Assembly (NCBI GenBank): GCA_030980935.1
Contig: GCA_030980935.1_3059.1
Direction: 5' to 3' (one strand)
Length of the DNA: 64,000 bases
DNA from: a phage
Numbering within the stretch: position 1 is the first letter of the stretch; each line of letters opens with the position of its first letter. Below the pieces are notes generated by a model. The model saw nothing but the letters and a program-made list of their open reading frames with translations. It ran no database searches and had not been told where the DNA came from. The translations under genes were made by a program, and so were the position numbers. Shown here piece by piece: positions 2,389-62,475 of the stretch.

Positions 2389-3504
2389 ATGGAAAAATTT
2401 ATGGCAGAGTTTGGACAAGGATATGTCCAAACGCCATTTTTATCGGAAAGCAATTCAGTAAGATATAAAATAAGCATAGCGGGTTCTTGCCCGCTTTCTA
2501 CAGCAGGACCATACGTTAAATTTCAGGATAATCCTGTAGGAAGTCAAACATTTAGCGCAGGCCTTCATTTAAGAGTTTTTGACCCTTCCACCGGAGCGTT
2601 AGTTGATAGTAAATCATATGCTTTTTCGACTTCAAATGATACTACATCAGCTGCTTTTGCTAGCTTCATGAATTCTTTGACAAATAACAGAATTGTTGCT
2701 ATATTAACTAACGGAAAGGTTAATTTTCCTCCTGAAGTAGTATCTTGGTTAAGAACAGCAGGAACGTCTGCTTTTCCATCTGACTCTGTATTGTCAAGAT
2801 TCGACGTATCATATGCTGCTTTTTATACTTCTTCTAAAAGAGCTATTGCATTAGAGCATGTTAAACTGAGTAATAGAAAAAGCACAGATGATTATCAAAC
2901 TATTTTAGATGTTGTATTTGACAGTTTAGAAGACGTCGGAGCTACCGGGTTTCCAAGAAGAACGTATGAAAGCGTTGAGCAATTTATGTCAGCGGTTGGT
3001 GGAACTAATAACGAAATTGCAAGATTACCAACTTCAGCTGCTATAAGTAAACTCTCTGATTATAATTTAATTCCTGGTGACGTTCTTTATCTTAAAGCCC
3101 AGTTATATGCCGATGCTGATTTACTTGCGCTTGGAACTACAAATATATCTATCCGTTTTTATAATGCATCTAATGGATATATTTCCTCGACACAAGCTGA
3201 GTTTACTGGACAGGCTGGGTCTTGGGAATTAAAGGAAGACTATGTAGTTGTTCCAGAAAATGCAGTTGGATTTACGATATATGCACAGAGAACTGCTCAA
3301 GCGGGACAAGGCGGTATGCGAAATTTAAGCTTTTCTGAAGTATCAAGAAATGGCGGCATTTCAAAACCTGCTGAATTTGGCGTCAATGGTATTCGTGTTA
3401 ATTATATCTGTGAATCTGCTTCACCTCCGGATATAATGGTACTTCCTACGCAAGCATCGTCTAAAACTGGTAAAGTGTTTGGGCAAGAATTTAGAGAAGT
3501 ATAA
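2389..3504 (+). CDS. 35: Long tail fibre hinge connector gp35
   Basis: 371 aa (T4 gp35 about 372 aa); position between 34 and 36. Confidence 0.85.
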   Translation: MEKFMAEFGQGYVQTPFLSESNSVRYKISIAGSCPLSTAGPYVKFQDNPVGSQTFSAGLHLRVFDPSTGALVDSKSYAFSTSNDTTSAAFASFMNSLTNNRIVAILTNGKVNFPPEVVSWLRTAGTSAFPSDSVLSRFDVSYAAFYTSSKRAIALEHVKLSNRKSTDDYQTILDVVFDSLEDVGATGFPRRTYESVEQFMSAVGGTNNEIARLPTSAAISKLSDYNLIPGDVLYLKAQLYADADLLALGTTNISIRFYNASNGYISSTQAEFTGQAGSWELKEDYVVVPENAVGFTIYAQRTAQAGQGGMRNLSFSEVSRNGGISKPAEFGVNGIRVNYICESASPPDIMVLPTQASSKTGKVFGQEFREV

Positions 3505-3509
3505 ATTGA

Positions 3510-3534
3510 GGGAGCCTTCGGGTTCCCTTTTTCT
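3510..3534 (+). terminator. UUCG-tetraloop hairpin plus U-run after gene 35
   Basis: GGGAGCC-TTCG-GGTTCCC followed by TTTTT. Confidence 0.6.
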
Positions 3535-3535
3535 T

Positions 3536-3543
3536 TATAAATA
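3536..3543 (+). promoter_or_regulatory. Late promoter core TATAAATA upstream of gene 36
   Basis: Exact TATAAATA about 24 nt before gene 36 ATG. Confidence 0.7.
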
Positions 3544-3566
3544 CTATTAAAATAAAGGGGCATACA

Positions 3567-4232
3567 ATGGCTGATTTAAAAGTAGGTTCAACAACCGGAG
3601 GCTCTGTCATTTGGCATCAAGGAAATTTTCCATTGAATCCAGCCGGTGACGATGTACTCTATAAATCATTTAAAATATATTCAGAATATAATAAACCACA
3701 GGCAGCTGATAACGATTTCGTTTCTAAAGCTAATGGTGGTACTTATGCATCAAAGGTAACATTTAACGGCGGCGTCCAAGTCCCGTATGCTGTAAACAAC
3801 ACAAACCCATGCGGTATTTATCCAGGTAACGGTGATAATGCTACTTTTGCTGTAGCAAATATTGATATTGTTTCGTGGAATGGTATTGGTTTTAAATCAT
3901 CGCAAGGTTCAGCAGCCCGAACTGTTGTAATTAATGCACGTAATGGTGATATTAATACAAAAGGTGTTGTGTCTGCGGCAGGTCAAGTAAGAAGTGATGC
4001 AGCTGCTCCTATAGCAGCGAATGACCTTACTAGAAAGGACTATGTTGATGGAGCAATAAATACTGTTACAGCAAATGCAAACTCTAGAGTGTTACGATCT
4101 GGTGACACTATGACGGGAAACTTAACCGCACCAAACTTTTTCTCGCAGAATCCTGCATCTCAACCTTCACATGTTCCACGATTTGACCAAATCGTAATTA
4201 AGGATTCTGTTCAAGATTTCGGCTATTATTAA
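3567..4232 (+). CDS. 36: Long tail fibre distal connector gp36
   Basis: 221 aa as in T4; TATAAATA late promoter about 25 nt upstream. Confidence 0.85.
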
Positions 4233-4240
4233 GAGGACTT

Positions 4241-7200
4241 ATGGCTACTTTAAAACAAATACAATTTAAAAGAAGCAAAACCGCAGGTGCACGTCCTGCT
4301 GCTTCAGTATTAGCCGAAGGTGAATTGGCTATAAATTTAAAAGATAGAACAATTTTTACTAAAGACGATTCAGGAAATATCATTGACTTAAGCATTTCCG
4401 CTGGCGGTAATATTAGTGGAAATATCACTCAAACTGGCGATTATACACAGACTGGAAAATTTAATTTAATTGGTCCGCAAATTGTAGCAAGCGGTGGATA
4501 TATTGAGTTTAATTATCGTACTACTGGAAGTGGGGCTTGGTCCGGTCAACACACTGCAAAGGCTCCAATTTTTGTAGATTTAAGCTCAGCTACTTCCACA
4601 TCTGAATATAATCCTATAATTAAACAGCGCTTTAAAGATGGAACTTTTTCATTAGGTACTTTAGTTTCTGAAGGTTCGTTGAAGATTCATTATATCAATG
4701 AATCTGGCGATTCGAAATATTGGACGTTTCGACGTGACGGCGGATTTGTTGTTGACGGTGGAGGTTTAGCAGTATCAGGAGGTAGTATAACTACATCTGG
4801 AAATATTGCAGCTCTCGGAAATATTACTTCGCCTCAGATTAATACTAAAAATATTATTTTAGATACAAAAGCATTTGGACAATATGATTCACAGTCATTA
4901 GTTCAATATGTTTATCCTGGAACAGGTGAAGAAAATGGCATAAACTATCTTCGTAAAGTTCGAGCTAAATCAGGCGGAACTATTTACCATGAAATCGCTT
5001 CAGCTCAAACTGGTAAGAATGATGAAATTTCTTGGTGGACCGGAAATACACTTACTACTAAATTAATGGGTCTTCGTAATGATGGCGCAATGGTATTACG
5101 TCGTTCACTTGCTATTGGCACAATTACCACTGACGAAAATACTAACAACTATGGTTCTCCTACTCCAATGGGAGAAAGATATATTGCTTTGGGCGATGCT
5201 GCCACTGGTTTAAAATACATTAAGCAGGGCGTTTATGATTTAGTAGGTAATTGGAATTCTGTTGCGTCTATTACTCCTGATAGTTTCCGTAGTACTCGTA
5301 AAGCGATATTTGGACGTTCAGAAGACCAAGGTGGAACATGGATTATGCCTGGAACTAACGCTGCGCTTTTATCAGTTCAAACTCAAGCTGATGGAAACTC
5401 CGCTGGTGATGGTCAAACACACATTGGATATAATTCTGGCGGTAAAATGAACCACTATTTTCGTGGTACAGGTCAGATGAATATCAATACCCAACAGGGT
5501 ATGGAAATTAATCCAGGAGTGTTAAAATTAACCACTGGGGCAAATAATGTAATGTTATACGCGGACGGCGGTATTACATCTGTTAAGCAGCTTTCAATAT
5601 ACAATGGGGTGTATTTAGCAGCTAATAATTCTACTGCTGGGCTAACATTCGCTCCAACTACTACAATTGATGGCACTAAGCAAATTTTGTGGGAAGGCGG
5701 TACTCGTGCTGGTCAGAATAAAAGCTATGTAACTGTTAAAGCATGGGGTAATTCATTTAACGCATCTGGCGATCGTAATCGTGAAACGGTTTTTGAAGTA
5801 GCTGATGGACAAGGATATTATTTTTATTCACAGCGTGTGGCTCCAAGTGGCTCTGAAACTACTGGGCCTGTTGTAACCCAGTTCAATGGACAAGTTAATG
5901 CTAGAGGAAGTATTATTACTGACGGAAGTTTTAAAGTTAATGGATTAAGCACTTTAGTCGGTAATGTTACTATGTCTAATGGTTTGTTTGTCCAAGGTGG
6001 TTCTTCTATTACTGGACAGGTAAAAATTGGTGGAACGGCTGATGCATTAAGAATTTGGAATGCTGAATACGGTGCTATTTTCCGTCGTTCTGAAGATAAG
6101 TTTTATATTATTCCAACCCCACAGAATGCGGGTGAATCAGGCGGCATTTCTAATTTACGTCCGTTCTATATTACATTAAGTAATGGTAAAGTTTCCATGG
6201 ATCATGATGTAGATATCGGCGGCGGTAGATTTAAAGTAGAAGTGGCTGGAACTACTGCTAATCAACGCATAACAGTAAATATGGCATCAGATGCTATTAG
6301 AATAAATGCTCCAACACAAGAGTCTTCTAACTTCATTCAAGGACGTAAGGCTGATGTGCCTAAATGGTATTTGGGTATTGGCGATGGCGGCAACGTCGTT
6401 CGTATGCACAGCTACACATATTCACATGGTATTGCATTAAATTCTGATTCTGTCGATATTACTAAGCCTTTTAAAGTCGGAAATGCACAATTAGGAACTG
6501 ACGGTAATATTACCGGTGGTTCAGGAAACTTTGCTAATTTAAACAGTACAATTGAATCATTAAAAACCGATATTGTTTCAAGTTATCCTATTGGAGCTCC
6601 TATTCCATGGCCAACGGATACTCCTCCTGACGGTTACGCTATTATGGAAGGCCAGACTTTTGATAAGTCTGCATACCCAAAATTGGCTATGGCTTACCCA
6701 TCTGGCGTAATTCCAGATATGCGCGGGCAAACTATTAAAGGTAAACCAAGTGGTCGAGCTGTATTAAGCGCAGAAGCCGATGGTGTTAAGGCTCATAGCC
6801 ATAGTGCATCGGCTTCAAGTACTGACTTGGGTACTAAAACTACATCAAGCTTTGATTATGGTACTAAAACATCTTCAAGCTTTGATTATGGTACTAAGAC
6901 TAGTAACACCACAGGAAACCATAACCATACAGTGAGTGGTAATACTAGTTCCGCCGGTGCGCACCAACACAACGAAGGGACGTATTTTTCATCGTACGGA
7001 TACTTTATGAACGGATACAATACTCGCCAGTCATCGGGAGCTGCCATCGAAACATCCAATAGACAAGGCATAGCGTTTTATGGTAAAACCTCTAGTGCTG
7101 GTGCCCACACTCATAGTTGGTCAGGAACCACGAGTACTACAGGTAACCATGCTCATACTGTAGGTATAGGTGCTCATACCCATACTGTAGGTATAGGTGC

Positions 7201-11427: not shown

Positions 11428-11577
11428 TTACTGCATGACTGTGATAACTGTCATGATAACACGTTGAATTCCGAACGCAAGAAGACCTCCTGCTACGGCT
11501 GGAACGACACCTAAACCCGCCAGTAAAATGCTACCAGATACTAATGCAGCGCTTGTAATACCAATGAATGGACTCAT
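11428..11577 (-). CDS. Small hydrophobic protein (49 aa)
   Basis: MSPFIGITSAALVSGSILLAGLGVV...; ATG overlaps gp52 stop; followed by hairpin plus U-run terminator. Confidence 0.45.
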   Translation of the reverse strand: MSPFIGITSAALVSGSILLAGLGVVPAVAGGLLAFGIQRVIMTVITVMQ

Positions 11578-12902
11578 TTGATTTCCTCTAAATCTTTAGT
11601 GTATTCAGTAACTACATCAGTAGTTTTCCAATATTCGTTTTCTTCTTTTTTGGCTTTAGCTTCTTCAGCAAGTTTCTTCGCTTCATCGGAAGTCATATGA
11701 AAAATATTCATTCCAACTAATTTATCAACATAAGAAGAATACATATCGATTTTCGAAAGTTCTTCGGTCAGTTCTTTACGAGTTTTACCCTGTACAACAA
11801 TTACACCTGAAATTACTTTCTTAATGAAATGTGCCTTGGCAAAGGCTAAACGAAAAGCTGATTCAGTTTCTTTAATTTTGTTATCAATTCGTTTTTGAAC
11901 ATAAGTTTTACGAACTTCAACAAAGTCTTTAATTAAATCAACTACGTTATCGTAAACTTGTAGTTTTCCTTTCTCATTAATAACCGTAATATTCTGAGAA
12001 CGACGCTCAATCAACCCGAAGTCTTTCATAATTTTTGCATGGCGTTCTTCTTCGTTATCGCTCAAAGAATATTCTTTACGGAATTTAACTTTAAAGCCGA
12101 AGCCGTGCTCACCACAAGCATCATCCCATGTAATGAAGCCTTTATCTTCAAGTGGGTCTAAGATTTTACTCACATAAGTTTCACGATCATACTTATACGG
12201 AATCTCAGTGATATGCATTTGAGTTCGTGAAGTAAACTTATATGTTCCACGAATTTCATATTGCCCATCAATTTCAACGACTTCACCACGAAATTCTGGG
12301 AATTCTACCTTCGGTTTAGTTACTTTCTTTCCTTGAAGAGCTTGTAATACAGCTTTCTTAACAGAAGAAACGCTATGAGGAAGAATGTAAGTTGCATAAC
12401 CAGTTGCAATACCGGAAACGCCATTAAGAAGAACAGTAGGAATAATAGGCAAATAGAAAGCAGGCGGAATGTGTTCTTTATCTTGATGTACCGGAGCATA
12501 CTCAGTATCTTTATATACGTTATAGAAATTTTTACTTACACGAGCAAAAATATAACGACTTGCCGCTGCTTTTTGAACGGTACGAGAACCGAAGTTTCCT
12601 TGACCATCTAACAGAGGAAAGTTATTATTCCAAGTGTTAGCCATCAAAGCACCTGCGTCTTGTGCAGAGTTTTCACCATGATGATATCCAAGGTCAGCTA
12701 CACCACCTGCAATAGAAGCAAGTTTGTGAAACTTATCTTTATTTCCTCGTGCCAAATCAAGAGCTCGAGCAATAACAAATCGTTGAACTGGCTTAAATCC
12801 ATCAATCATATTTGGAATGGCACGATTTTCAACCGTGTACATAGCATAAGCCAATGCTTCATTATCAATGATACTTTTTAAATCGCGATTATTCAGTTGC
12901 AT
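11574..12902 (-). CDS. 52: DNA topoisomerase II medium subunit gp52
   Basis: 442 aa as T4 gp52; topoisomerase A-subunit-like sequence. Confidence 0.9.
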   Translation of the reverse strand: MQLNNRDLKSIIDNEALAYAMYTVENRAIPNMIDGFKPVQRFVIARALDLARGNKDKFHKLASIAGGVADLGYHHGENSAQDAGALMANTWNNNFPLLDGQGNFGSRTVQKAAASRYIFARVSKNFYNVYKDTEYAPVHQDKEHIPPAFYLPIIPTVLLNGVSGIATGYATYILPHSVSSVKKAVLQALQGKKVTKPKVEFPEFRGEVVEIDGQYEIRGTYKFTSRTQMHITEIPYKYDRETYVSKILDPLEDKGFITWDDACGEHGFGFKVKFRKEYSLSDNEEERHAKIMKDFGLIERRSQNITVINEKGKLQVYDNVVDLIKDFVEVRKTYVQKRIDNKIKETESAFRLAFAKAHFIKKVISGVIVVQGKTRKELTEELSKIDMYSSYVDKLVGMNIFHMTSDEAKKLAEEAKAKKEENEYWKTTDVVTEYTKDLEEIK

Positions 12903-17070: not shown

Positions 17071-19248
17071 TTAGGCCGCAAGGGCCTTCATAGTTTTAGC
17101 GATTTGAGAAACTTCATCATCACTTAAAGAGTTGCGATAACCGATGAAGTCGGAAACAATACGGAATTTCTTGGTAAACTCAGCAACCATTTTATCACTA
17201 TTTTTTGAAGCATTATTTGACAATACATCAAAAAGATTAGTTACTGTCCAGATGTCATGACCGATGGTACCTTTTCCACCGTTGAAATATATGCCCTGTA
17301 ATGAACTAACCATATTACCAAGGCGAGTATATTCTTCAGAAACTTCATCTACACTGAAGTACTTCATCATAAAATCTAGTTCAGGATACTTAATAATTTT
17401 ATCAATATATCGTTTAGCTGAACTTGAATAACCTACATACTTATCATAATCTACAGCATCAAAAGCATCTACATATAAATCACGCAGAGTTTCAAAAATA
17501 CATTGGCACTGACCGAGTTCTTTTACCTTTTTCTGTAAAAGCGGACGAATAACATAAAATTCATTAATGCCAATAAGATTAGCCATACGAATCAAAATAT
17601 TCATAGATGGATGACAAAGTGATGTAGTACCATCCATAGAGAAAATATCAGAACGATGCATATACGCTACATAACCAGTAATTTCATCTGCTTCTGACGT
17701 AAGTGTAAATAATTCCTCTTTTTCCCAACGCCCATCTTTAATTTCAAACTTAAATGCTGTAGCAGCTTTAGGACGAGGAGCTTTACTTTTAACTACCTTT
17801 GGAATATAGCTTTTAACTAAAGCTTCAATTTCTGACAAATAATGAATGTTAACTTCATCACTTTCAAACATTGCCATAATATCAGGAAGCAAATCAATCT
17901 GCGATTCTACTTCTGGATTAATAAACAGAAGGCGTTCGTTGTGATGAATATTCAAAGTGTTATTAAATTCACTATCATCTAACGCATGTGCTAATCCACG
18001 GACAATATTAACACGATTTTTAATATTATCAATAACGATATTAATTTTTGTTGTATTAATACCAAACAGACGATAACTTGATGCAACGGCTGAAGTTTCA
18101 TGGCTTTGCTTAATGCGTTTCAGTCGAGGGTCAAGATTTACTTCATACACAACTCCTGCATTGCATAACTTACTGTCAGGTTCAAACATGCTCTGCATTT
18201 TCTTATATGACAGATTTTTAGTCGTGAATTTGACTGAATTACTAATCATATAATCTCGAGCAGAATACCCCATCTTCATCAATTCACGATATGTGTGACG
18301 AGGAGATGTAGATTCTTTAAATCGTTTTACATCTTCATTAAATGCTTTCTCACTAAGCTCTTTAACTCGTTCAATAATATTTTTACGAGTGCGATCATCT
18401 AATGAAAGAGCTTCACGTGATGGAGCAATATCAAGTGAACCCATTGGAAATTTAATGTAATTCACTTCATTGCGAATGCTTAGCCAGTTACGGTCTCTAA
18501 TAACACCATCGATAGGATAAACAATACCGCCATAGATAGCATATAATCCACCACGATCTGGCCAATATCTTTCTGGATTTACGCCATAATAATCATCAAA
18601 ATCCGGAAAATAATCAATTTCGCGGTCAAGACCATTAATGATAGCCAAATCTTTGAATGGTCGCATGATATAAGAAACTTCATAAGCAAAGTTTCTAAAG
18701 TCTTTTTCTTCAACTGGAACTACGATTTCAATACCAGTTTTATCATTTGGACCCATTTCTTTTACGAATGTAGGTTTAATTTGTGGACCATCGCCATCCA
18801 TGTAAGCTACATAACCACGAATTTCACCTTTATGATACGAAGTAATACTAAACGTATCAGTATAACTAAACGGAGATTTAGAACCTAAACCAAATCCGCC
18901 AATAAAGTCATTAGATTCAGCCTTAGATGAACTGAAGTATGAATTATACAAACCAGGAGAATTATCATCACCCTGAATATCAAAATCACTCATACCCGGA
19001 CCAAAATCTCGGCAAACAAATCGTGGATCTAAACGTCCAGGAACTTGAATGATAAATTTTTCAGGATTTCCATTGAGAGCATGGGCATCAATCATGTTGG
19101 TAATCAATTCACGAACAACTGCGCGAATCTTATTTGTATACAAATCAGATGACAGAATTTTAAATACTTTAGGATTTGCTGCGATGCTAAATGCTTTTGA
19201 TTTAGAACCATTGCCAAGAATTGTTTCTTTTTCAGTGGTGATAATCAT
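17071..19248 (-). CDS. rIIA: rIIA protein
   Basis: 725 aa as T4 rIIA; GHKL-ATPase-like N-terminus. Confidence 0.9.
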
Positions 19249-19258
19249 AATTTCCTCA

Positions 19259-19462
19259 TTAATTCATATTACGCTTAATAACTTCAGCAACTTCTAGTAG
19301 TTCATCTTTAGTTGCAGTGTCGGATTGAATTTTATCTCTAATATCTTTAAAGCGGTTTTTAAATTCTTCGGCTTCTCCCATATCGAAAAAGCGTTGAATG
19401 ATTCTATATTCTCGATGAACTGCTTTATCAAAAAGTTCTAAATTTACTCTATATGATTTCAT
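19259..19462 (-). CDS. rIIA.1-like small protein
   Basis: 67 aa ORF directly upstream of rIIA; early promoter upstream. Confidence 0.6.
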
Positions 19463-19516
19463 TTCAATATCCTCATTTGCCCAATTAATTATACCACATC
19501 CTTGTGGTAAAGTAAA
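19463..19516 (-). promoter_or_regulatory. Early promoter upstream of rIIA.1/rIIA
   Basis: Minus strand TTTAC...TATAAT. Confidence 0.45.
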
Positions 19517-21337
19517 TTACTGGCTCATCCATTCTTTACGAAGGTCAGCATTATCTCCCATGAGCATTTCAAAAAGCTCTTTCCAGTTCTCAGGAAGTTT
19601 AACAACATCATATACTGGATTTTGAATCATCTCACGATATTCAGATTTTTCCAAAGAGCCAAGTCCTTTAATATAACGGATGCTATGTTTAGGTAGAGCA
19701 TCTTTGGCACTCTCATATTCAGCGACTGTATAAAACCATTCTTGTTTTTTACCGACCTGAGCGATGATTACAGGAGTTTTGACAAAGCGAATTCGTCCTT
19801 GCTCAAACAGTTCTGGCCAATTACTAAAAAATCCGAGCAGAGAAGGATAAATGCTTCCTAGACCATCATGGTCAGCATCAGTCATAATAGCAATATTATG
19901 ATAATTCAAGTTTTCAGCTTTTTCACCGAGAACTAATCCAGTGATTGCGCAAATATCAAATAGTTCTTTGTTTTTAAGCATATCTGCATAAGACATACCC
20001 CAACTGTTGAGAACTTTACCACGCAATGGATAACCACCATGAAGTTCTTTATCACGAACATCAATAAGATATCCGATAGCAGAATCACCCTCAGTCAAGA
20101 AAAGAGTAGTATCAGCATCTTTACCACAAAGATTCGCTTTAATATGTTTATGAACCTTAGCTTTAGAAGCCTTTTTAGCTGCTTTAGTTTCTGCTGCTTT
20201 TTCTGCCGCTAATTTACGAGCCAAGGCAGCTTCAATAATTGGCATTAAAATTGCTTCATTGTTTAAAATAGCGCGTGAAATCTTTTTAGCATCAAGTTGA
20301 ATATGACTACGAATTTCACCAAATGGAGAAGTCAAACGCTCTTTAGTTTGAGAATCAAATCGCATGTTTTTCATATCACGAACAAACATAACGATAGTCA
20401 AACATTCTTTAACACGTGCTTTAGTTACATCAATTTTGAACTTACGTTTGATTTGTGGAATAAGGTCTTCACAAATATCATCCATAACACAGTCAATGTG
20501 ATGGCCACCATTCTTAGTATGAATATTATTGACGTACGTCAACTGACGAAAACCATCCGGTGAACGACCAACCGCAATAGAACAATTTTCTTGTTCTTGA
20601 ACGATAGCATGTTCATCATACTGTCGTGCGTATTTCTTAAAATTGCCCTGAACCTTTTTACCATTAAAGGTAAATTGAATATCAGGATAAACAACAGCAA
20701 GTGTCTGGAGACGATCTAGTGTAATGTCAAGATAAACTTGGGACAGCTCATTAGTTTCAAATGACATAAAATCTGGAATGAAAGTAACACGAGTTCCTTT
20801 CCATTTTCCAGGAATAGTTTCCCAGGATTTATTTTCCATGCCATTTGAACAACGAACTACAATATTATTTTGACCATCGCCAGTTTCACCGACAAACATC
20901 ACAGAAAAAATGTTAGTTAAACTAGAACCAACACCATTCATACCACCGGTGACACGTTCTTTATCATCACCAAAGTTACCACCCGCTTTTGGAATAGTCC
21001 AAGCAGCAACTGGACCAGGAATTTCTTCACCGGTAGGTGTTTTAACCATCGCTTGTGGAATACCGCGACCGTTATCTTCAACTGTTACCTGATTATTTTT
21101 AATGGTAACATTAATTTTATTCGCGAATTTAAACTTAGTACGAATACCTTCATCGACTGAGTTATCGATAATTTCATCAATAAGCTTAACAAGACCAGGT
21201 ACATACTGAACACTTTCCCATTTACCAAACAGAAAGCGCTCATGCATTTCATTAGCAGAAGAGCCAATGTACATGCCACTACGCTTTTTGATATGTTCAA
21301 TATCGCTCAGAATTTTAATTTCATTCTTAATCATCAC
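19517..21337 (-). CDS. 39: DNA topoisomerase II large subunit gp39, unsplit form (gene 39 plus gene 60 equivalent)
   Basis: 606 aa with GyrB-like ATPase N-terminus and Toprim C-terminus in one ORF; likely start is second Met (21334). Confidence 0.9.
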   Translation of the reverse strand: MMIKNEIKILSDIEHIKKRSGMYIGSSANEMHERFLFGKWESVQYVPGLVKLIDEIIDNSVDEGIRTKFKFANKINVTIKNNQVTVEDNGRGIPQAMVKTPTGEEIPGPVAAWTIPKAGGNFGDDKERVTGGMNGVGSSLTNIFSVMFVGETGDGQNNIVVRCSNGMENKSWETIPGKWKGTRVTFIPDFMSFETNELSQVYLDITLDRLQTLAVVYPDIQFTFNGKKVQGNFKKYARQYDEHAIVQEQENCSIAVGRSPDGFRQLTYVNNIHTKNGGHHIDCVMDDICEDLIPQIKRKFKIDVTKARVKECLTIVMFVRDMKNMRFDSQTKERLTSPFGEIRSHIQLDAKKISRAILNNEAILMPIIEAALARKLAAEKAAETKAAKKASKAKVHKHIKANLCGKDADTTLFLTEGDSAIGYLIDVRDKELHGGYPLRGKVLNSWGMSYADMLKNKELFDICAITGLVLGEKAENLNYHNIAIMTDADHDGLGSIYPSLLGFFSNWPELFEQGRIRFVKTPVIIAQVGKKQEWFYTVAEYESAKDALPKHSIRYIKGLGSLEKSEYREMIQNPVYDVVKLPENWKELFEMLMGDNADLRKEWMSQ

Positions 21338-21387
21338 TTATCCTCGTTTGGTTTCGGGAATATTATACTCCGGTAATCATAAAGCTA

Positions 21388-21403
21388 AAGGCCCGAAGGC
21401 CTT
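21388..21403 (-). other. UUCG-tetraloop hairpin
   Basis: AAGGCC-CGAA-GGCCTT followed by T-run. Confidence 0.5.
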
Positions 21404-21676
21404 TTATTTAAAACGAATAGTTGAATCCTTAAAGAACAGCCCAGAACATACTGTTCCTTCTACTTTCTGCCCGGTAGGTCCAATAGCACGAAATCCAGTA
21501 TGCTGGAAATCATTTTCAGAGCAACCGAACCAATTATATCCAGTGATTTCAATATTAGTAAAACCACTTGAAGACAAAACTTTGGTTGCATTATCAGCAT
21601 CAGTACATCCTACTAAAGATACTGCTAATACTAATGCCGCGATAGAACGATTAACATATTTCATAATTTCACTCAA
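21404..21676 (-). CDS. Putative lipoprotein
   Basis: Signal peptide with lipobox LVGC; about 60-aa mature part with 3 Cys. Confidence 0.5.
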   Translation of the reverse strand: MSEIMKYVNRSIAALVLAVSLVGCTDADNATKVLSSSGFTNIEITGYNWFGCSENDFQHTGFRAIGPTGQKVEGTVCSGLFFKDSTIRFK

Positions 21677-22040
21677 ATTTAATGGCTTGAAGGAGACTAA
21701 TAATTCTCAAGCGACTTCTTTCATCTTTAACTGTAAAAGAAAGAGGGTCACCAGATTTCATAGTGATAGTGCATTCAAAATCAAAATCTTCTGTGACTTC
21801 TTCAAAGAAGTCAAATTCTTCATCATAAATTAGAACATTACTCTGAAAACTGTGAAGAATTTTTCCATCATTTCCGGATGCTGTACTAATCATTGTAACA
21901 TTATGACCTTTCATATCTTCAACGATAAATTCGCTTGTAGATATTACAGCATTAATAGAACCATTCCTATAAATAGCAGACATTAGATATTTCTTTTCTT
22001 CGCCTTTGCGAATACGATACTTCTTACCGATTTTAAACAT
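21669..22040 (-). CDS. Hypothetical protein
   Basis: 123 aa ORF, acidic C-terminal half. Confidence 0.5.
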   Translation of the reverse strand: MFKIGKKYRIRKGEEKKYLMSAIYRNGSINAVISTSEFIVEDMKGHNVTMISTASGNDGKILHSFQSNVLIYDEEFDFFEEVTEDFDFECTITMKSGDPLSFTVKDERSRLRIISLLQAIKFE

Positions 22041-32451: not shown

Positions 32452-32497
32452 AATAAATTCTCGCGGCTTTTAAGTCGTCGTTTATTTAAACGAGCTA

Positions 32498-33016
32498 TTA
32501 ATAGCCTCGATCTTGACGAGCGAAGTTTTCGGCATTTTTCAGATAATAAAGTTTAAAGATTTCTTCAGCTGACATTCCAAGAGCAATGAATTTATTCATG
32601 AAAAAGTGAAATTGGTCAATTAGTTCAAATTTAATTTCAAGTTGATCTTCAGGAGATAAATCTTGAATTTTCTTGGATTGCATTTCAGAATAACGTTTCT
32701 TCCAAGGTTTCCATACAGCAGAAGCTTCTTTTTCACCATTACTCATACCACCAAGAGAAGTATATAGCTCGCGAGTTTCATCTGCGATATAATCGTCTTG
32801 GTTTCGCAACCAAGCAAGAACTTCTCCTGCAGTTTCAAGTGAATCAGGATGACGATTTGTTTCTGGTTTATCATTAGCCAAACGAATCTGTAAATGCCGC
32901 TGCATGTCAAGCATAACCTGCAATGGGTCAATACTGTGCATAATATACTCAGCATATGCACGATTTGCTTTATCAACACCTTCGATCAAATGAGCACATT
33001 CATTAAAGTGAGCCAT
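32498..33016 (-). CDS. 56: dCTPase/dUTPase gp56
   Basis: Track ORF trimmed to MAHFNECAHL (171 aa as T4 gp56), SD AAGGA upstream. Confidence 0.85.
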   Translation of the reverse strand: MAHFNECAHLIEGVDKANRAYAEYIMHSIDPLQVMLDMQRHLQIRLANDKPETNRHPDSLETAGEVLAWLRNQDDYIADETRELYTSLGGMSNGEKEASAVWKPWKKRYSEMQSKKIQDLSPEDQLEIKFELIDQFHFFMNKFIALGMSAEEIFKLYYLKNAENFARQDRGY

Positions 33017-33076: not shown

Positions 33077-34416
<1,340 letters not shown>

Positions 34417-35899: not shown

Positions 35900-35943
35900 A
35901 TTAACCTCTATTCATAAAAGCATTAAAAATTTGGTCATCAATA
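35897..35943. repeat. 47-bp direct repeat, copy A
   Basis: catattaacctctattcataaaagcattaaaaatttggtcatcaatag; 3 mismatches to copy B. Confidence 0.8.
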
Positions 35944-36257
35944 GATGGCGCAGTAATATTTTCTGCATCATTTAGCAAATCATTAATTTCATCAGATAGC
36001 ATAACACATGTACCTTTATTTCCTGTAATTGTTACTGCACAATTACGAACGTTTTCTTTATCAAATTTTAGGTTAATATTTTCGTAGTGAAAATCCTTTA
36101 ATGCCGAATATATCTTTAAAATGAAATTGTCTTTTACTACAATAAACCCAACCTCACTATTAAAACGCGGTTCATGGAAACTGTAATAAACCTTTTCATC
36201 TATAAAATCGTATGAAATTTTTTCCATTTTTAAATATGAAAATTCAGAACTATACAT
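35901..36257 (-). CDS. Hypothetical protein, truncated paralogue of the next gene
   Basis: 118 aa; shares VKDN core and C-terminus SIDDQIFNAFMNRG with downstream 196-aa ORF; flanked by 47-bp direct repeats. Confidence 0.55.
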   Translation of the reverse strand: MYSSEFSYLKMEKISYDFIDEKVYYSFHEPRFNSEVGFIVVKDNFILKIYSALKDFHYENINLKFDKENVRNCAVTITGNKGTCVMLSDEINDLLNDAENITAPSIDDQIFNAFMNRG

Positions 36258-36301
36258 ATTAACCTTTATTCATAAAAGCATTAAAAATTTGATCGTCAAT
36301 A
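36255..36301. repeat. 47-bp direct repeat, copy B
   Basis: catattaacctttattcataaaagcattaaaaatttgatcgtcaatag; 358 bp from copy A. Confidence 0.8.
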
Positions 36302-36849
36302 GAAACTTTTACAATTTTGTGATCGATACCAAAATACACAGAAGCAATATTATTAATATTATTTTCAGTGAAATCTAAATCAACATCAATATCTTTTTGA
36401 CTAACGCTCAAAGGATAATTAATACGAATAATTCGATTATCTTTAACAAAGATTCCACCGACATACTCTGTGCTGCGTTTAAAGTTTACACGTTTCCTAA
36501 ATGAAAAATATTCAGGTTCTTTATGGGCTCGACTCATAGGGCTTAAAGTATATTCCGAATATGAAATATCAAATCCTACACCTTCAATATGAGCCAAAGT
36601 GTCATGATTAAACCAATTATAATCGTATGCCAAATCCATTAAATTGTAATATGTGAAAGGCACCGGATTAACATCATATGTTGTACCTTTAAAATCTGCC
36701 CAGGCAACGATTTCGTTATCTTTAACAATTACAAAAATTGTGCCAATAAGATATCCACGGTTATTTTCATCAGGCGTTATATTATAACATTGTGCATCAG
36801 GAAATTTACCGTATTTAAACGGTGGATTTTTGTGCATATAATAAATCAT
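36259..36849 (-). CDS. Hypothetical protein (61.2-like) with internal repeat
   Basis: 196 aa; motif I(F/V)V(I)VKDN occurs twice; C-terminus SIDDQIFNAFMNKG. Confidence 0.55.
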   Translation of the reverse strand: MIYYMHKNPPFKYGKFPDAQCYNITPDENNRGYLIGTIFVIVKDNEIVAWADFKGTTYDVNPVPFTYYNLMDLAYDYNWFNHDTLAHIEGVGFDISYSEYTLSPMSRAHKEPEYFSFRKRVNFKRSTEYVGGIFVKDNRIIRINYPLSVSQKDIDVDLDFTENNINNIASVYFGIDHKIVKVSIDDQIFNAFMNKG

Positions 36850-39504: not shown

Positions 39505-40660
39505 TTAACTGCTCGAGGTCAGTTTCTAAATCAGCAGCTGATTTACTTTTACTTTCTGGAGATTTAAATTTTTCAACCTTTGAGTTAATCAATTCATCAA
39601 CTTCAGCTTCAACAATTTCATTACTATCAATAGCACCTAACTGATAAGCACGTTTAATAGCATCTCGGAATGGTTGATGCTTAAATAAAGGACCCCAGAA
39701 TGTAGTGCAGTTGGTATCTTTTGCACGCCAAGATTTTTCTTCGCGAATCATCTCGCCGGTTTCTTCATCAAGAAATTCACGAGCATACCAACCATTTTTA
39801 GGTTTTACCACGAATCCTAATTCTAGAGCCATATCTAACAATCCAGAATAAGGATCGATACCGCCGTCAAATTTAACATCAATAAAGAATTTACTTTTTT
39901 CTTTAACGGTACGAGATTTTTCTACATTTAGAACAAATTGATACCCTTGAAGATCAGAACCATCTTTAATTTGACGTTTACCGATAATGAATACAGTATC
40001 AGCCGAATACATTACGCCTGTACCACCTGTCATCACGGTTTTACTAAACATTTCAATTGTTTCAATTGTATGGTTAACCGCAACACATGGAATATTTTTA
40101 ATGCTAAAATAAGGAGTAACAATACGGAATAATGACTTCAGTGATTTAGCACGAGTCATATCTGCCACAGATTTTTCATTCAAGGCGTCTTCCGTTTCTT
40201 TCTTAGAAGCCATATTACCGATTGAGTCGATGAATACAATAACTTTTTCACCGCGCTCAATAGCTTCAAGCTGATTCACCATATCAATTTTCAGCTGTTC
40301 AACTGACTGGATTGGCGTATGAATTACTCGTTCCGGGTCAACTCCCATGGATCGCAAATAAGCTGGAGTAATACCAAATTCGCTATCATAGAATAGACAA
40401 ACCGCGTCAGGATATTTGTTCAAATATGCCGCAACCATAGTCAAAGACATATTTGATTTAAAGTGTTTAGAAGGCCCTGCGAAAATAGTTAAACCAGACT
40501 GCATGCCGCCATCAATCGCACCAGAAATAGCAATATTAAGCATTGGGATTTTTGTACGGATTACATCCTTTTCATTAAAGAATTTAGATGTAGTCAGTTC
40601 AGCAGTCATTTTAGAAGTGGAAGCTTTAATCAAACGGGATTTTAAATCTGCAATAGACAT
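39479..40660 (-). CDS. uvsX: Recombinase UvsX (RecA-like)
   Basis: 393 aa; RecA fold motifs, Walker A GPSKHFKS. Confidence 0.9.
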   Translation of the reverse strand: MSIADLKSRLIKASTSKMTAELTTSKFFNEKDVIRTKIPMLNIAISGAIDGGMQSGLTIFAGPSKHFKSNMSLTMVAAYLNKYPDAVCLFYDSEFGITPAYLRSMGVDPERVIHTPIQSVEQLKIDMVNQLEAIERGEKVIVFIDSIGNMASKKETEDALNEKSVADMTRAKSLKSLFRIVTPYFSIKNIPCVAVNHTIETIEMFSKTVMTGGTGVMYSADTVFIIGKRQIKDGSDLQGYQFVLNVEKSRTVKEKSKFFIDVKFDGGIDPYSGLLDMALELGFVVKPKNGWYAREFLDEETGEMIREEKSWRAKDTNCTTFWGPLFKHQPFRDAIKRAYQLGAIDSNEIVEAEVDELINSKVEKFKSPESKSKSAADLETDLEQLSDMEEFNE

Positions 40661-40737
40661 TCATTTTTTCCATAGGCATCATTATATTTTCCTCACTGGT
40701 TAAAGATAGAGTAATTATAACACAATAAATTTAGGCA

Positions 40738-41586
40738 TTAATCAACTGCTATTGGATGAATAGCATTAAACTTATGAAATGCTTCTGATTTTTCTTTACG
40801 CGAAACACACATGCGAAGAACCTTTAATGGCTCGTCTTCTTCACCCAACGATTTTCGTTTTTCAATATTCGATGTTTTCCAACGAGCTTGCTCTGGAAAC
40901 TCTCTATTGATCTGCTCAAGCGCTCTATTATGTTTAGAATTACTACGAATTGAACTGCACCCGCCAGGAGCTTGTGCTTTTCCAGATACAACCAGATATT
41001 TGAACAAGGCCAAATGCGGATAACCTTGATTAATTAAATTGAGAAATGCATACATATCTTCGCACAAATCAATTTTTCCATACCCAATTTGTTCTGTCGT
41101 AAGTTTTCCAAGGTCATACCATGTATTCGTGAATCCATATGAATTTTCACGATAATTACCCCAAGATGAAGTAATTTTAAAAATTGGTAGGCGAGCATGA
41201 CCATGATAATACCCGCAATCCATGGCATCTTCGACGTATTGAATCAATTCATAGAACTGTTCATGAGTCAATTGATTGACTTTATCTACACATCGGCGAT
41301 CATCTCTTTTTCGCATTGAACTCATACGAATAGTAGTATCATCGTCAATCATCCAGATTCGTTGACCTGCATACATATCAGTAATTGCTTTACGAGTACC
41401 GGCAATTCCGTTTACATCATCAGGAATAGTTATAATTTTAGCTCTAGACCCATAAGCATCATAATAAGCTTTTTCTTCGTGTTCACGCACTACAATATGG
41501 GGTTCATAATCAGTCGGAAACATATCAAGGGCAGAAACTGCCCCAACACGCTGATAGCTTGGAATTACGAATTGAATCATTTCCAC
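40738..41586 (-). CDS. GT-A-type glycosyltransferase at the beta-gt locus (not T4 beta-gt; possibly T2/T6-type beta-alpha-gt)
   Basis: 282 aa; DxD motif IWMIDDDTTIR; occupies the slot between uvsX and gene 42. Confidence 0.55.
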   Translation of the reverse strand: MEMIQFVIPSYQRVGAVSALDMFPTDYEPHIVVREHEEKAYYDAYGSRAKIITIPDDVNGIAGTRKAITDMYAGQRIWMIDDDTTIRMSSMRKRDDRRCVDKVNQLTHEQFYELIQYVEDAMDCGYYHGHARLPIFKITSSWGNYRENSYGFTNTWYDLGKLTTEQIGYGKIDLCEDMYAFLNLINQGYPHLALFKYLVVSGKAQAPGGCSSIRSNSKHNRALEQINREFPEQARWKTSNIEKRKSLGEEDEPLKVLRMCVSRKEKSEAFHKFNAIHPIAVD

Positions 41587-42317
41587 TCACCGTTATAGTC
41601 TTTTTTCACAATATGAGTTTCGCCAGTATTCCACCAATGATCAACCAAGTAAAAATGACGAGAATATACATGAAGACTTCCAACATTCCATATAATAGAA
41701 CCTGCTTTATACTGACGAGTTGAATCGCCTGCATTCAAATCAGATACTAATTTATCTAGTACGTATTTTTGCCATGCGTAATCATTACGGAATCCGAAGA
41801 CCACGTCATTTGAGCGCATGCTTACTACTGCATTGACTTTCTTATCACGAATCAGGTACTGTACTGTATTAGTACACATGAAATCTGACATACCGTCTTT
41901 ATTGTAATCAAATTGCATGGATGGACGAGTATAAATCATGATACCACGTCGAGAATCAGGATTTTGACCAAGTTCAGCTAAACACATATCATACTGGGCA
42001 TAGTTATCTTCTGACCAAATAGCCCAACCATAATTCGAGTTAATTTCGCCTTTAGAAGATGCTACCTGCTGCCAAATCTTTGGTGTTTCACCTGGAATAT
42101 CTTTAACAAACAGACTTTGAGACTTGTACCATTCAAGTTCACGCTGAATGTATTCATCATTAAGAGCACCAAAAATAAAAGGTTCATCTGCTACAAATGA
42201 TGCGCCAATAATTTCAATAGTTTTAACACCGGTTTTATCAACTACGAAATCTTTTTCTTTTAATGCAAGCCCCAAATGAAGACGGATTTCTTCAACTGTC
42301 ATAGAGTCACTAATCAT
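41577..42317 (-). CDS. 42: dCMP hydroxymethylase gp42
   Basis: 246 aa as T4 gp42; thymidylate-synthase-like fold. Confidence 0.9.
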   Translation of the reverse strand: MISDSMTVEEIRLHLGLALKEKDFVVDKTGVKTIEIIGASFVADEPFIFGALNDEYIQRELEWYKSQSLFVKDIPGETPKIWQQVASSKGEINSNYGWAIWSEDNYAQYDMCLAELGQNPDSRRGIMIYTRPSMQFDYNKDGMSDFMCTNTVQYLIRDKKVNAVVSMRSNDVVFGFRNDYAWQKYVLDKLVSDLNAGDSTRQYKAGSIIWNVGSLHVYSRHFYLVDHWWNTGETHIVKKDYNGEWK

Positions 42318-52968: not shown

Positions 52969-54171
52969 TTATTTTGTAATAATGTCAAACTGTTCTTTAA
53001 AGCAGAAGCTTGAATCTTGGTGCTGATACAAAAATTCATATGCTTTTTCTCGCTCACGGTCATAAAGAGCTCGGTCAGATGACAGTTCTTTAATACGTTC
53101 AAATGTTGATTCCATGTCATTTTCATCAAACCAAACGATACCGCTATCATGCGAAATTAGCGGAGTATTATCAACACGGAATTTTAAATTTTCGCCAGTA
53201 GATTTCCAAAATACCGGAATTGTTCCACATGCACCAAGCTCGAGATGAGTATATTCTAAAGAACGTTGTAGATATTTTTTATCCAACTTACTCAACTGAT
53301 AACCAAAACCGGATTTACTCATACGTTCAAGCATTTCGCTATTTACATAACGGTCAAGAATTTGCGTTGGCAAATTAGGAGCAATTTTAATTTGGTCTAC
53401 TTGATGAAGACGATAATACTCGTATGGAATTCCTTTTTCTTTAATAGGAATGAACGCTGGAGAACGTTCCAGACCTTCCATAATAGTACTTAGTCCTGCA
53501 GGTTTAAGATGTTTTTCGTGAAAATCAAACATCTGATAAAAACCTTTCCATGTAGTCGTACGACCAATCCAACGGTTGATATTCATGTTAATTTCAGAAA
53601 CATCTTTCCAGTAGGTTGATCGAACCTTCGCAATATCCATAGGAGGCTGAAAGTTATATACGGTCGGTGCTTCTTCAATATCATCAAACAGAGAAACTGT
53701 TTCTGGATACCATTCTTTCATCAAAACTTTATTAAAATCGCCATTATCAGAATGACTAAAAATAACATCAGCTCGACGAACAGTTTCTTCTAATCCCAAA
53801 TTTCGACGCAAAGAAAGAGAAGAATGGTCATGCTGATAAACTACAACACGAACAGAAGGTTTAATGTTATCAATAATTTTTTTATAGTTATTAATAGTGT
53901 CTTCTTCAACCGAAGTAGCAGGAACTGAATTGATAATTAGAATATCACAATCATTTACCAGCTTAAGTGTTTTATCGTATTCTTTTGCCAATAAAACCGG
54001 AATTGAAAATGATTTATAATCATGCGCGCAATTACGAGTAAATGATTTATCTTTAGCATAAACCAAAGTCACTTCATGACCATTTTTAATAAACCAATCA
54101 CGTTGCTCAAGAGAAAATTTAGTTACACCGCAACCTTCAAGACCTCGAGCCATAAAAATGCATACTTTCAT
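52969..54171 (-). CDS. a-gt: Alpha-glucosyltransferase (hmC DNA glucosylation)
   Basis: 400 aa; recognised as near-identical to T4 alpha-gt. Confidence 0.9.
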   Translation of the reverse strand: MKVCIFMARGLEGCGVTKFSLEQRDWFIKNGHEVTLVYAKDKSFTRNCAHDYKSFSIPVLLAKEYDKTLKLVNDCDILIINSVPATSVEEDTINNYKKIIDNIKPSVRVVVYQHDHSSLSLRRNLGLEETVRRADVIFSHSDNGDFNKVLMKEWYPETVSLFDDIEEAPTVYNFQPPMDIAKVRSTYWKDVSEINMNINRWIGRTTTWKGFYQMFDFHEKHLKPAGLSTIMEGLERSPAFIPIKEKGIPYEYYRLHQVDQIKIAPNLPTQILDRYVNSEMLERMSKSGFGYQLSKLDKKYLQRSLEYTHLELGACGTIPVFWKSTGENLKFRVDNTPLISHDSGIVWFDENDMESTFERIKELSSDRALYDREREKAYEFLYQHQDSSFCFKEQFDIITK

Positions 54172-54237
54172 TTAATATCCTCATTGTTTTGGTTTATTTT
54201 ACCAAAAATTTGTAAAGCAATATAGGAGCCGAAGCTC

Positions 54238-58212: not shown

Positions 58213-58683
58213 TTAATCATGTGTCCACACCCCATCGGTATTTGACCAAAGTCGCTGATTATCTGATCCTCGCCACAGCTTTTTGGTCGGAAGATTTTTC
58301 TCATACTTCCCATCAATAATAACATCAACATATTTAAGCATTTCTAGTTGTTTAATATCTTCAAACTTATATCCTGTCCACAACCAAATGCTTTTACTGG
58401 GATAAAGATTTTTTACTGTTTGAACGATGCAATGAATAACATCTCGGTTATCAGGATAGAGAGGGTCTCCTCCAGTTATAGTTAATCCTTCTATATAATC
58501 ATTATTCAAACATTCAATTAATTGTTCTAGTGTTTCACCAGTGAATGGAATACCATTTCTAGCATTCCATGTTGATTTATTATAACACCCTTCACATTTA
58601 TGCAAACAACCTGTAACGAAAAGAACGACCCTGCAACCAGGGCCATTCACAAAATCGCAAGGATAAAATCTATCATAATTCAT
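58213..58683 (-). CDS. nrdG: Anaerobic ribonucleotide reductase activating protein NrdG
   Basis: 156 aa; radical-SAM cysteine cluster CLHKCEGCYN. Confidence 0.9.
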   Translation of the reverse strand: MNYDRFYPCDFVNGPGCRVVLFVTGCLHKCEGCYNKSTWNARNGIPFTGETLEQLIECLNNDYIEGLTITGGDPLYPDNRDVIHCIVQTVKNLYPSKSIWLWTGYKFEDIKQLEMLKYVDVIIDGKYEKNLPTKKLWRGSDNQRLWSNTDGVWTHD

Positions 58684-62086: not shown

Positions 62087-62257
62087 TTAATTTCGCAATT
62101 TATTAAGTTCTTCATCATCAATCCAGGATTCTAGTCCTGATGGCAGGTCACATTCAATTTCCCAAAGAAGTTCTTCAATTTTCTGAAGACGATCTAGTTC
62201 TTCGGCTGGAATAGTAACCATTGACGGAGTTCTTGATACACTAATATCGTAAATCAT
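62087..62257 (-). CDS. Small hypothetical protein
   Basis: Track ORF 62087-62296 trimmed to internal Met to avoid overlap with upstream gene. Confidence 0.4.
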   Translation of the reverse strand: MIYDISVSRTPSMVTIPAEELDRLQKIEELLWEIECDLPSGLESWIDDEELNKLRN

Positions 62258-62259
62258 AT

Positions 62260-62475
62260 TTACCCCAGTTTGACCATGCAATCGCCATATTTCCATTTAG
62301 AAATAGACTTTTCACCGTTAGAATAATAAACTTCGAGTTTAGCACGATTATTTTTAATTTGAATAACCTTTGCTGTCATCAAAGTTCCATACCCGTAATA
62401 AACTGTAACCTCATCACCTACATATACCGCGCTTCCGCGGTAGTCATGGATATAATCAGTTCCTTCGAGCATCAT
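62260..62475 (-). CDS. Hypothetical protein
   Basis: 71 aa ORF coupled to nrdC. Confidence 0.5.
   Translation of the reverse strand: MMLEGTDYIHDYRGSAVYVGDEVTVYYGYGTLMTAKVIQIKNNRAKLEVYYSNGEKSISKWKYGDCMVKLG

Follow-up and report, generated by a model that had tools for sequence, protein, structure and literature searches.

A Tequatrovirus gene 39 that reads as one uninterrupted topoisomerase subunit gene, with a predicted empty MobA homing site

Background

In T4, the large subunit of the type II DNA topoisomerase is divided between genes 39 and 60 with mobA between them, and any gene 39 found in one piece raises the question of whether the interrupting element never arrived, came and left, or was simply lost in assembly. 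The T4 arrangement of genes 39, mobA and 60 and its bypass cassette have reportedly been treated by Huang et al. 1988, Bonocora et al. 2011 and Manning & Atkins 2022, and unsplit gene 39 is said to have been known since T2 and T6 were compared with T4. The T4-specific insertion, about 1.1 kb placed after codon 473, extends gp39 by a 43-aa C-terminal tail and brings in the HNH endonuclease gene mobA and a 30-aa N-terminal tail; it also adds a diverged copy of the stretch that it replaces and a 50-nt coding gap.

Manning & Atkins (bioRxiv 10.1101/2022.08.31.505936) view mobA and the bypass as one horizontally mobile cassette. According to Bonocora et al. 2011, as relayed by Manning & Atkins, and to Edgell et al. 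2010, MobA nicks the uninserted allele, while the 50-nt insert shields the inserted allele from self-nicking. The uninserted, “parental” allele has itself been described already, in Bonocora et al. 2011 (as given in summaries of that work) and in Manning & Atkins 2022.

Here we examine gene 39 in a stretch of 64,000 nt of phage DNA (GCA_030980935.1, contig GCA_030980935.1_3059.1), referred to below as the window. Mapped on T4, the window spans gene 34 to nrdC.3. We report that its gene 39 is very probably an uninterrupted Tequatrovirus gene of the T2/T6 type (19517-21334), this being the best explanation of the locus, and we consider what its intact target site would mean for the mobility of the cassette.

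Results

Reading frame and start codon

The ORF listing gives a single ORF on the minus strand at 19517..21337, of 606 aa when counted from a GTG (below, the mechanical ORF), and neither strand carries a longer overlapping ORF. Its 605 codons from the ATG lie in DNA of 35% G+C, a length far beyond chance. The coordinates of this gene, its motifs, its junctions and its neighbours are collected in Table 1.

The preliminary description had counted 606 aa, a figure that we revise by one residue. The in-frame GTG at 21337 is the first start-type codon past the upstream stop, as a 606-aa protein would require; however, the GAGGA sequence stands only 3 nt from it, as against 6 nt from the ATG. The same GTG-ATG pair opens the ORF in T4, where the annotation uses the ATG; the gp39 annotations of T2 and MLF4 have 1818 nt, that is 605 aa; and T6 gp39, also 605 aa, was expressed from a Met-Ile-Lys start as an active protein and its structure was solved. 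On account of this spacing, the T4 annotation and these lengths, we infer that the gene runs from 19517 to 21334 and almost certainly starts at the ATG at 21334. Translation from the GTG is very unlikely.

Upstream of the gene, positions 21362..21387 hold a putative middle promoter, whose elements resemble the T4 middle-promoter consensus. The sigma-70 scan did not list this signal because its -35 hexamer is missing.

Table 1. Features of gene 39, its junctions and its surroundings in the window
Feature	Position	Strand	Basis or remark
Gene 39, unsplit; DNA topoisomerase II large (GyrB-like) subunit	19517..21334	-	605 aa + stop; ORF, T4 collinearity, T6 identity, phrog_543, Pfam
Stop codon TAA of gene 39	19519-19517	-	
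In-frame GTG, opens mechanical 606-aa ORF; improbable as start codon	21335..21337	-	
ATG, almost certainly the start codon	21334-21332	-	
Shine-Dalgarno GAGGA, 6 nt upstream of ATG	21341..21345	-	sequence reading; same in T4
Middle-promoter-like signal: MotA-box-like TAGCTTTA (21387-21380), 12-nt spacer, -10 hexamer TATAAT (21367-21362)	21362..21387	-	sequence reading
GC-rich hairpin AAAGGCC-TTCG-GGCCTTT, directly after gene 39.1 stop codon	21387..21404	-	sequence reading
GHKL ATPase motifs EIIDNSVDE (aa 54-62), DNGRGIP (aa 87-93), GGMNGVGSS (aa 130-138)	20921..21175	-	motif search and HATPase_c
Transducer-domain SQTKERL (“QTK” loop), aa 328-334	20333..20353	-	motif search, DNA_gyraseB; same in resequenced T4
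Toprim acidic motif TEGDSA, aa 414-419	20078..20095	-	motif search; on gp39 in T4
Toprim metal-binding motif TDADHDG, aa 485-491	19862..19882	-	motif search; on gp60 in T4
Codon 473 GCT (Ala), last codon common to T4 gene 39; T4 mobA cassette 5' junction directly after	19916..19918	-	codon comparison, blastn breakpoints
Parental 63 nt, gene nt 1420-1482, ENLNYHNIAIMTDADHDGLGS, replaced by cassette in T4; putative empty homing site	19853..19915	-	blastn, codon comparison
Codons 491-492 GGT CTA (Gly-Leu), uninterrupted; equivalent T4 codons flank 50-nt coding gap (GGA / UAG...GGA / UUA)	19859..19864	-	codon comparison
Match to T4 5661-3911	21666-19917		blastn, 96.3%
Match to T4 2899-2854	19908-19863		blastn, 76%
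Match to T4 2793-2141	19852-19200		blastn, 98.8%
Gene 39.1 homologue, upstream neighbour	21404..21676	-	phrog_902; aligns to T4 39.1 region
rIIA.1, downstream neighbour	19259..19462	-	Pfam T4_RIIA1 E = 2e-33; phrog_1683
rIIA, downstream of gene 39	17071-19248		
rIIB, downstream of gene 39	16121-17059		
Gene 52, GyrA-like partner subunit of same enzyme	11577..12902	-	tblastn with T4 gp52: 99.5% identity, all 442 aa

One chain for the whole subunit

Over its entire length the product matches the PHROGs family phrog_543, “DNA topoisomerase II large subunit” (E = 7e-296), and residues 453-606 of the mechanical ORF also match phrog_7229, a gene-60-type family. Three Pfam models exceed their gathering scores: HATPase_c at aa 48-150 (38.4 bits, cut-off 26.4), DNA_gyraseB at aa 251-385 (51.1 bits, cut-off 27) and TOPRIM_C (30.7 bits, cut-off 29). 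A GHKL ATPase domain and a GyrB-type transducer with its QTK loop are thus both present. The core Toprim model PF01751 gave no match in the product at E <= 0.001; the call of a complete Toprim domain is made from TOPRIM_C, from the motifs TEGDSA and DADHDG and from the match to the T6 structure. The glutamate motif (TEGDSA) and the DxDxD motif (TDADHDG) share one polypeptide here.

In the PDB search the product matches T6 gp39, in 8ylu (E = 0) and five further entries. This protein (YP_010067157; cryo-EM structures 8ylu, 8yo1, 8yo5 and others) is identical at 604 of 605 positions, the sole difference being Gln526 in the window and His in T6; it has the same GHKL ATPase-transducer-Toprim domain order, and gp52 is its partner in a type IIA topoisomerase of two subunits. 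The MLF4 protein (AYR03886.1) is identical at all 605 residues, with 98.5% nucleotide identity, and T2 gp39 (AP018813, BBF63163.1) at 603, the differences being F70L and T173D, with 96.9% nucleotide identity. Both of these phages carry an unsplit 605-aa gene at the same site between rIIA.1 and 39.1, and their gene 39 differs from that of the window only by synonymous or near-synonymous polymorphisms.

Cellular enzymes are homologous over the full length but more distant (human TOP2B, E = 1e-59; Streptococcus pneumoniae ParE, E = 4e-48; Escherichia coli GyrB, E = 1e-36), and the catalytic motifs are common to bacterial GyrB/ParE, the N-terminal half of eukaryotic topoisomerase II and the window protein. 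All scores against the NCBIfam gyrB/parE equivalogs are far under the cut-offs (218 bits, cut-off 882). The product belongs to a phage-specific branch and is no subunit of a cellular gyrase or topoisomerase IV, and we regard the label “DNA gyrase subunit B” in some database records as loose naming.

Collinearity with T4 and the position of the junctions

T4 genes 39, mobA and 60 encode the same enzyme subunit between the same flanking genes. By blastp, residues 2-474 of the mechanical ORF align with T4 gp39 1-473 (98.3%) and residues 473-606 with T4 gp60 27-160 (95.5%), both ungapped, and the protein alignment to T4 runs without a gap over the cassette junction. Aligned in this way with T4 gp39 plus gp60 and with T2 gp39, as the preliminary description had proposed, the window protein proved collinear throughout, and its claim that a single ORF encodes the whole subunit, as in T2, is borne out.

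At the nucleotide level the blastn breakpoints fall at window 19917 (T4 3911) and window 19852 (T4 2793), and T4 2794-3910, comprising the cassette and the gap, has no counterpart in the window. Past Ala473, where T4 enters its 43-aa tail and a stop, the window reads on as ENLNYHNIAIMTDADHDG-LGS. The junctions defined at codon level, Ala473 and Gly491/Leu492, agree with the published insertion coordinates of aa 466-473 and D490/G491 (Manning & Atkins). Past the landing codon the window differs from T4 at nine positions, five of them within the first 9 nt, which matches the published extension of the cassette in this clade to 9 nt past the gap (Manning & Atkins); we accordingly place the replaced stretch at gene nt 1420-1482. 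The cassette's own copy is identical to the end of this stretch at only 35 of 48 positions, a value inside the published range of 67-81% for cassette copies against the parental sequence (Manning & Atkins).

The T4 reference gp39 reads RLIRQTK at the transducer loop and resequenced T4 reads RFDSQTK. We rejected RLIRQTK as a true T4-specific difference, since the resequenced reading indicates a compensated frameshift error in the reference, which also has 11 extra nt in the cassette.

Absence of the cassette and its parts

Pattern searches of the entire window, with up to 3 mismatches allowed, found neither the 50-nt gap sequence nor the take-off hairpin, and codons GGT and CTA are contiguous where T4 has the gap. 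No tblastn match in the window at E <= 0.01 was obtained with intact T4 MobA (272 aa, the query taken from the resequenced T4 record), with the 43-aa C-terminal tail of gp39 or with the 30-aa N-terminal tail of gp60. An Rfam scan of the entire window for structured RNAs and introns, at gathering thresholds, returned 0 matches. The earlier statements that mobA and the gene 60 bypass are missing from this locus therefore hold.

A predicted empty homing site

The 63 nt that T4 has replaced (19915-19853) are intact in the window. With 30 nt of flanking sequence added (gene nt 1408-1500, window 19927-19835), they are identical to T2 at 93 of 93 positions, and the MobA target stretch is the same in the window, T2 and MLF4. 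This 63-nt stretch contains the region of MobA nicking in T2, according to the account of Bonocora et al. 2011 given by Manning & Atkins. Because of its identity to T2, an experimentally nicked MobA substrate, the window allele reads as the “parental”, empty homing-site form, and it is predicted to be susceptible to MobA.

Just 5' of the insertion point, the window and T2 differ at gene nt 1398, 1399 and 1407, differences that are unlikely to affect recognition by MobA.

Genomic neighbourhood

The gene order around rIIA.1 is the same as in T4 and T2. A megablast search with 19200-21700 retrieved 535 phage records, almost all of them from Tequatrovirus. One contiguous match spans 80% or more of the query in 506 records, the best being that to phage MLF4 (98.4%).

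All the T4 homing-endonuclease elements of the 64-kb interval are absent from the window: the mobA cassette, segF, segA (with beta-gt), mobB, mobC and the nrdD intron with I-TevII. Searches by tblastn found no homologues of T4 homing endonucleases elsewhere in the window, and PHROG and Pfam scans found no homing endonuclease in the 10 ORFs of window-specific inserts.

The segA/beta-gt slot is occupied by a T2/T6-type beta-glucosyl-HMC-alpha-glucosyltransferase, yet the region of gene 38 is 97% identical to T4 in the alignment, and the genome is therefore a mosaic. It is identical to no deposited record; for each 25-kb window end the best deposited match is only about 96-98%.

Frequency of the unsplit gene

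The uninterrupted 93-nt site occurs in about 447 phage records, of which 141 reach at least 99% identity, and the T4 cassette (T4 2794-3910) in 43, about a third of which are T4 laboratory stocks. Since uninterrupted records outnumber those with the cassette to this extent, the unsplit form is the default state, at about 90%. Over the N-terminal 1419 nt common to all, pairwise identity of the window is 96.55% to T4, 96.19% to T2 and 98.17% to MLF4, and the value between T2 and T4 is 96.12%.

Discussion

Function of the unsplit product

As a single 605-aa GyrB-like chain, the gene 39 product holds the GHKL ATPase, the transducer and the complete Toprim domain, and together with gp52 it should assemble into the type IIA topoisomerase of T-even phages, an ATP-dependent enzyme of two subunits (A2B2). 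Its translation is ordinary and collinear and needs no ribosome hop. T6 gp39 combined with T4 gp52, which is two residues from the T6 subunit, relaxes DNA and makes an active enzyme (Xin et al. 2024, PMC11461880), and the near-identity of the window protein to the assayed T6 subunit, from which it is one residue away, suggests that it would be active with gp52 as well. The T4 insertion “has little influence” on topoisomerase activity and is dispensable (PMC11461880).

History of the locus

We favour the reading of 19517-21334 as an uninterrupted gene 39 of the T2/T6 type, which either has never received the approximately 1.1-kb MobA/bypass homing cassette or has lost it cleanly by recombining with an allele free of the insertion. 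Such a clean reversion, with an uninserted phage as donor, is traceless and looks the same as an allele that was never entered.

A different route to the same gene structure would be secondary re-fusion, in which a cassette once carried lost its endonuclease and bypass and the two halves were joined again. “Hit and run” and fused forms do exist in Aeromonas and Campylobacter phage clades (Manning & Atkins), and the presence of the cassette in 43 relative records makes past exposure plausible. Re-fused or eroded alleles, however, retain the cassette-derived C- and N-terminal tails (Manning & Atkins), neither of which tblastn detected here; the 63 nt and their flanks match uninserted T2 in full but the cassette copy at only 35 of 48 positions; and the 9 nt that follow the landing codon are the parental version and not the cassette version. 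We consider re-fusion extremely improbable, and have rejected hidden cassette remnants as well, the gap, the hairpin, MobA and both tails all being absent. That the phage really has a split 39/60 or a frameshifted gene, and that the ORF was produced by mis-assembly or reference-guided polishing, has a negligible probability: only one assembly is available and the errors in the T4 reference (compensating frameshifts in gene 39, 11 extra nt in the cassette) show that the region is not free of errors, but all 605 codons are intact, the product differs by 0-2 aa from those of three phages sequenced independently, the same uninterrupted junction is found in 447 records, and the equally clean absence of the other T4 homing-endonuclease genes from the 64-kb interval fits a real T2/T6-like genome and not a local collapse. 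Within this single assembly, nothing in the sequence contradicts an unsplit gene 39.

The cassette as a marker and as an ancestor

The locus had been proposed as a marker of lineage, and for this purpose we find it weak. The cassette is mobile and its presence or absence does not track the flanking gene-39 sequence, which makes it a poor lineage marker; the window is equally near to T4 and T2 in the common 1419 nt, and we therefore rejected cassette status in this role. It had also been suggested that the unsplit gene represents the ancestral state for the bypass element. This may be kept for the gene architecture, which is ancestral, but not for the bypass sequence, which does not derive from the allele of the window, because it arrives ready-made inside the cassette, whose homologous stretch agrees at only 35 of 48 positions.

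Expected encounter with MobA

If MobA acts on this allele as it does on that of T2, then co-infection with a phage that carries the cassette would lead to nicking of the window allele and its conversion into split genes 39 and 60. One may go further and view the phage as a fully naive recipient, free of all six T4 homing-endonuclease elements of the 64-kb interval and with a T2-identical MobA target, in which the 5' polymorphisms at nt 1398, 1399 and 1407 could change how MobA recognises the site or how long the co-conversion tracts are. We hold this extended proposal to be highly improbable, and the data give no sign of such an effect on recognition or co-conversion; if it were true, the window allele would offer a natural variant with which to map how far the homing site extends on its 5' side.

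Conclusions

Unsplit gene 39 is an already known, majority state, a T6 protein one residue away from the product has been solved and assayed, and the biology of the cassette that sets T4 apart has already been elucidated; the significance of the locus therefore extends little past its correct annotation. We propose that its annotation read topoisomerase II large subunit, of 605 aa and from 21334, in place of “DNA gyrase subunit B”, and that the presence or absence of the cassette not serve as a phylogenetic marker. Carrying an intact target, the phage would be expected to gain the cassette in mixed infection with T4-type phages.

Mosaic genome and absence of T4 homing-endonuclease elements

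Here we report that all T4 homing-endonuclease elements are missing from the corresponding interval of the window: segF, segA, mobB, mobC, the mobA cassette that separates genes 39 and 60, and the group I intron of nrdD, which carries I-TevII. A tblastn search of the whole window with the T4 homing-endonuclease proteins revealed no copy at any other location, and an Rfam scan of the window returned no intron.

The slot of T4 segA and beta-gt is occupied by a 280-aa ORF matching phrog_842 ("beta-glucosyl-HMC-alpha-glucosyltransferase", E = 6e-89) as well as Pfam TAGT, and these matches point to a gentiobiosyl DNA modification of the T2/T6 type. Since, from about 7175 on, the gene 38 region aligns to T4 at 97%, whereas the glucosyltransferase is of T2/T6 type, the genome is a mosaic and not simply "T2-type". 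The distal half of the tail-fibre gene 37 (4386-7175, + strand) is strongly diverged, with 75-84% identity to T4 and unaligned gaps between flanks of 94-97% identity, and is the usual hypervariable region for host range.

Features of the window discussed in the text, with positions and strand
Feature	Position	Strand	Remarks
Strong sigma-70-like promoter, TTTACT-17 nt-(TG)TATAAT	19488-19516	-	Directly past gene 39 stop codon, before rIIA.1
123-aa ORF	21669-22040	-	Between 39.1 and 39.2; matches phrog_622
186-aa ORF, phrog_8706	33856-34416	-	Function unknown; adjoins dam (33077-33856)
118-aa AdfA-like ORF	35901-36257	-	Directly after 196-aa ORF
196-aa AdfA-like ORF	36259-36849	-	First of tandem pair
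280-aa ORF	40738-41580	-	Slot of T4 segA and beta-gt
Two small ORFs	62087-62296; 62260-62475	-; -	In place of T4 gene 49.3
Sites of missing T4 homing-endonuclease elements	32452-32498; 40648-41595; 54162-54187; 58663-58683; 59959-59962; 19853-19916		

Additional small genes and a predicted promoter

The 123-aa ORF is absent from T4 and present in phage MLF4, the best megablast match at the gene 39 region. It also shows a weaker match to a goF-annotated family (E = 9e-7) and may be a paralogue of goF, which itself lies one gene away. One of the two ORFs replacing gene 49.3 matches phrog_3402 (E = 7e-40), whose annotation is "antitoxin from a toxin-antitoxin system". The promoter predicted beyond gene 39 is probably an early promoter serving rIIA.1/rIIA.

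Where T4 has one gene, the window carries a tandem pair resembling AdfA (T4 61.2, anti-DarT factor A). The two ORFs share the C-terminal ending IDDQIFNAFMN(K/R)G, and the shorter matches Pfam AdfA (E = 1e-7) over no more than the C-terminal half of the model.

Errors in the T4 reference gp39

The old T4 reference gp39 reads RLIRQTK (NC_000866, 4340-4360) where the window (20333-20360), T2, T6 and the resequenced T4 (OZ209057) read RFDSQTK, a segment that includes the conserved QTK loop. At the DNA level, this reading reflects a +1/-1 pair of compensating frameshifts in the old reference, and D355A is a further difference of the same protein. The mobA cassette of this reference contains 11 extra nt, which break mobA into "mobA" and "60.1". 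The RLIR error has been inherited by structural work based on NP_049621.1.

A nuclease-like ORF abutting dam

At the position of the 186-aa ORF, T4 has non-coding DNA only. The ORF overlaps dam by a single base (33856), which ends its stop codon and opens the start codon of dam. In the predicted protein, FDIVIS...IIEIKH forms a D...E-I-K pattern that recalls PD-(D/E)XK nucleases; the Pfam DpnII restriction endonuclease model scored below threshold (E = 0.0099; 15.7 bits, cut-off 23), and no match was found in NCBIfam or among PDB sequences. A nuclease-like gene coupled to a GATC methylase would merit closer study.
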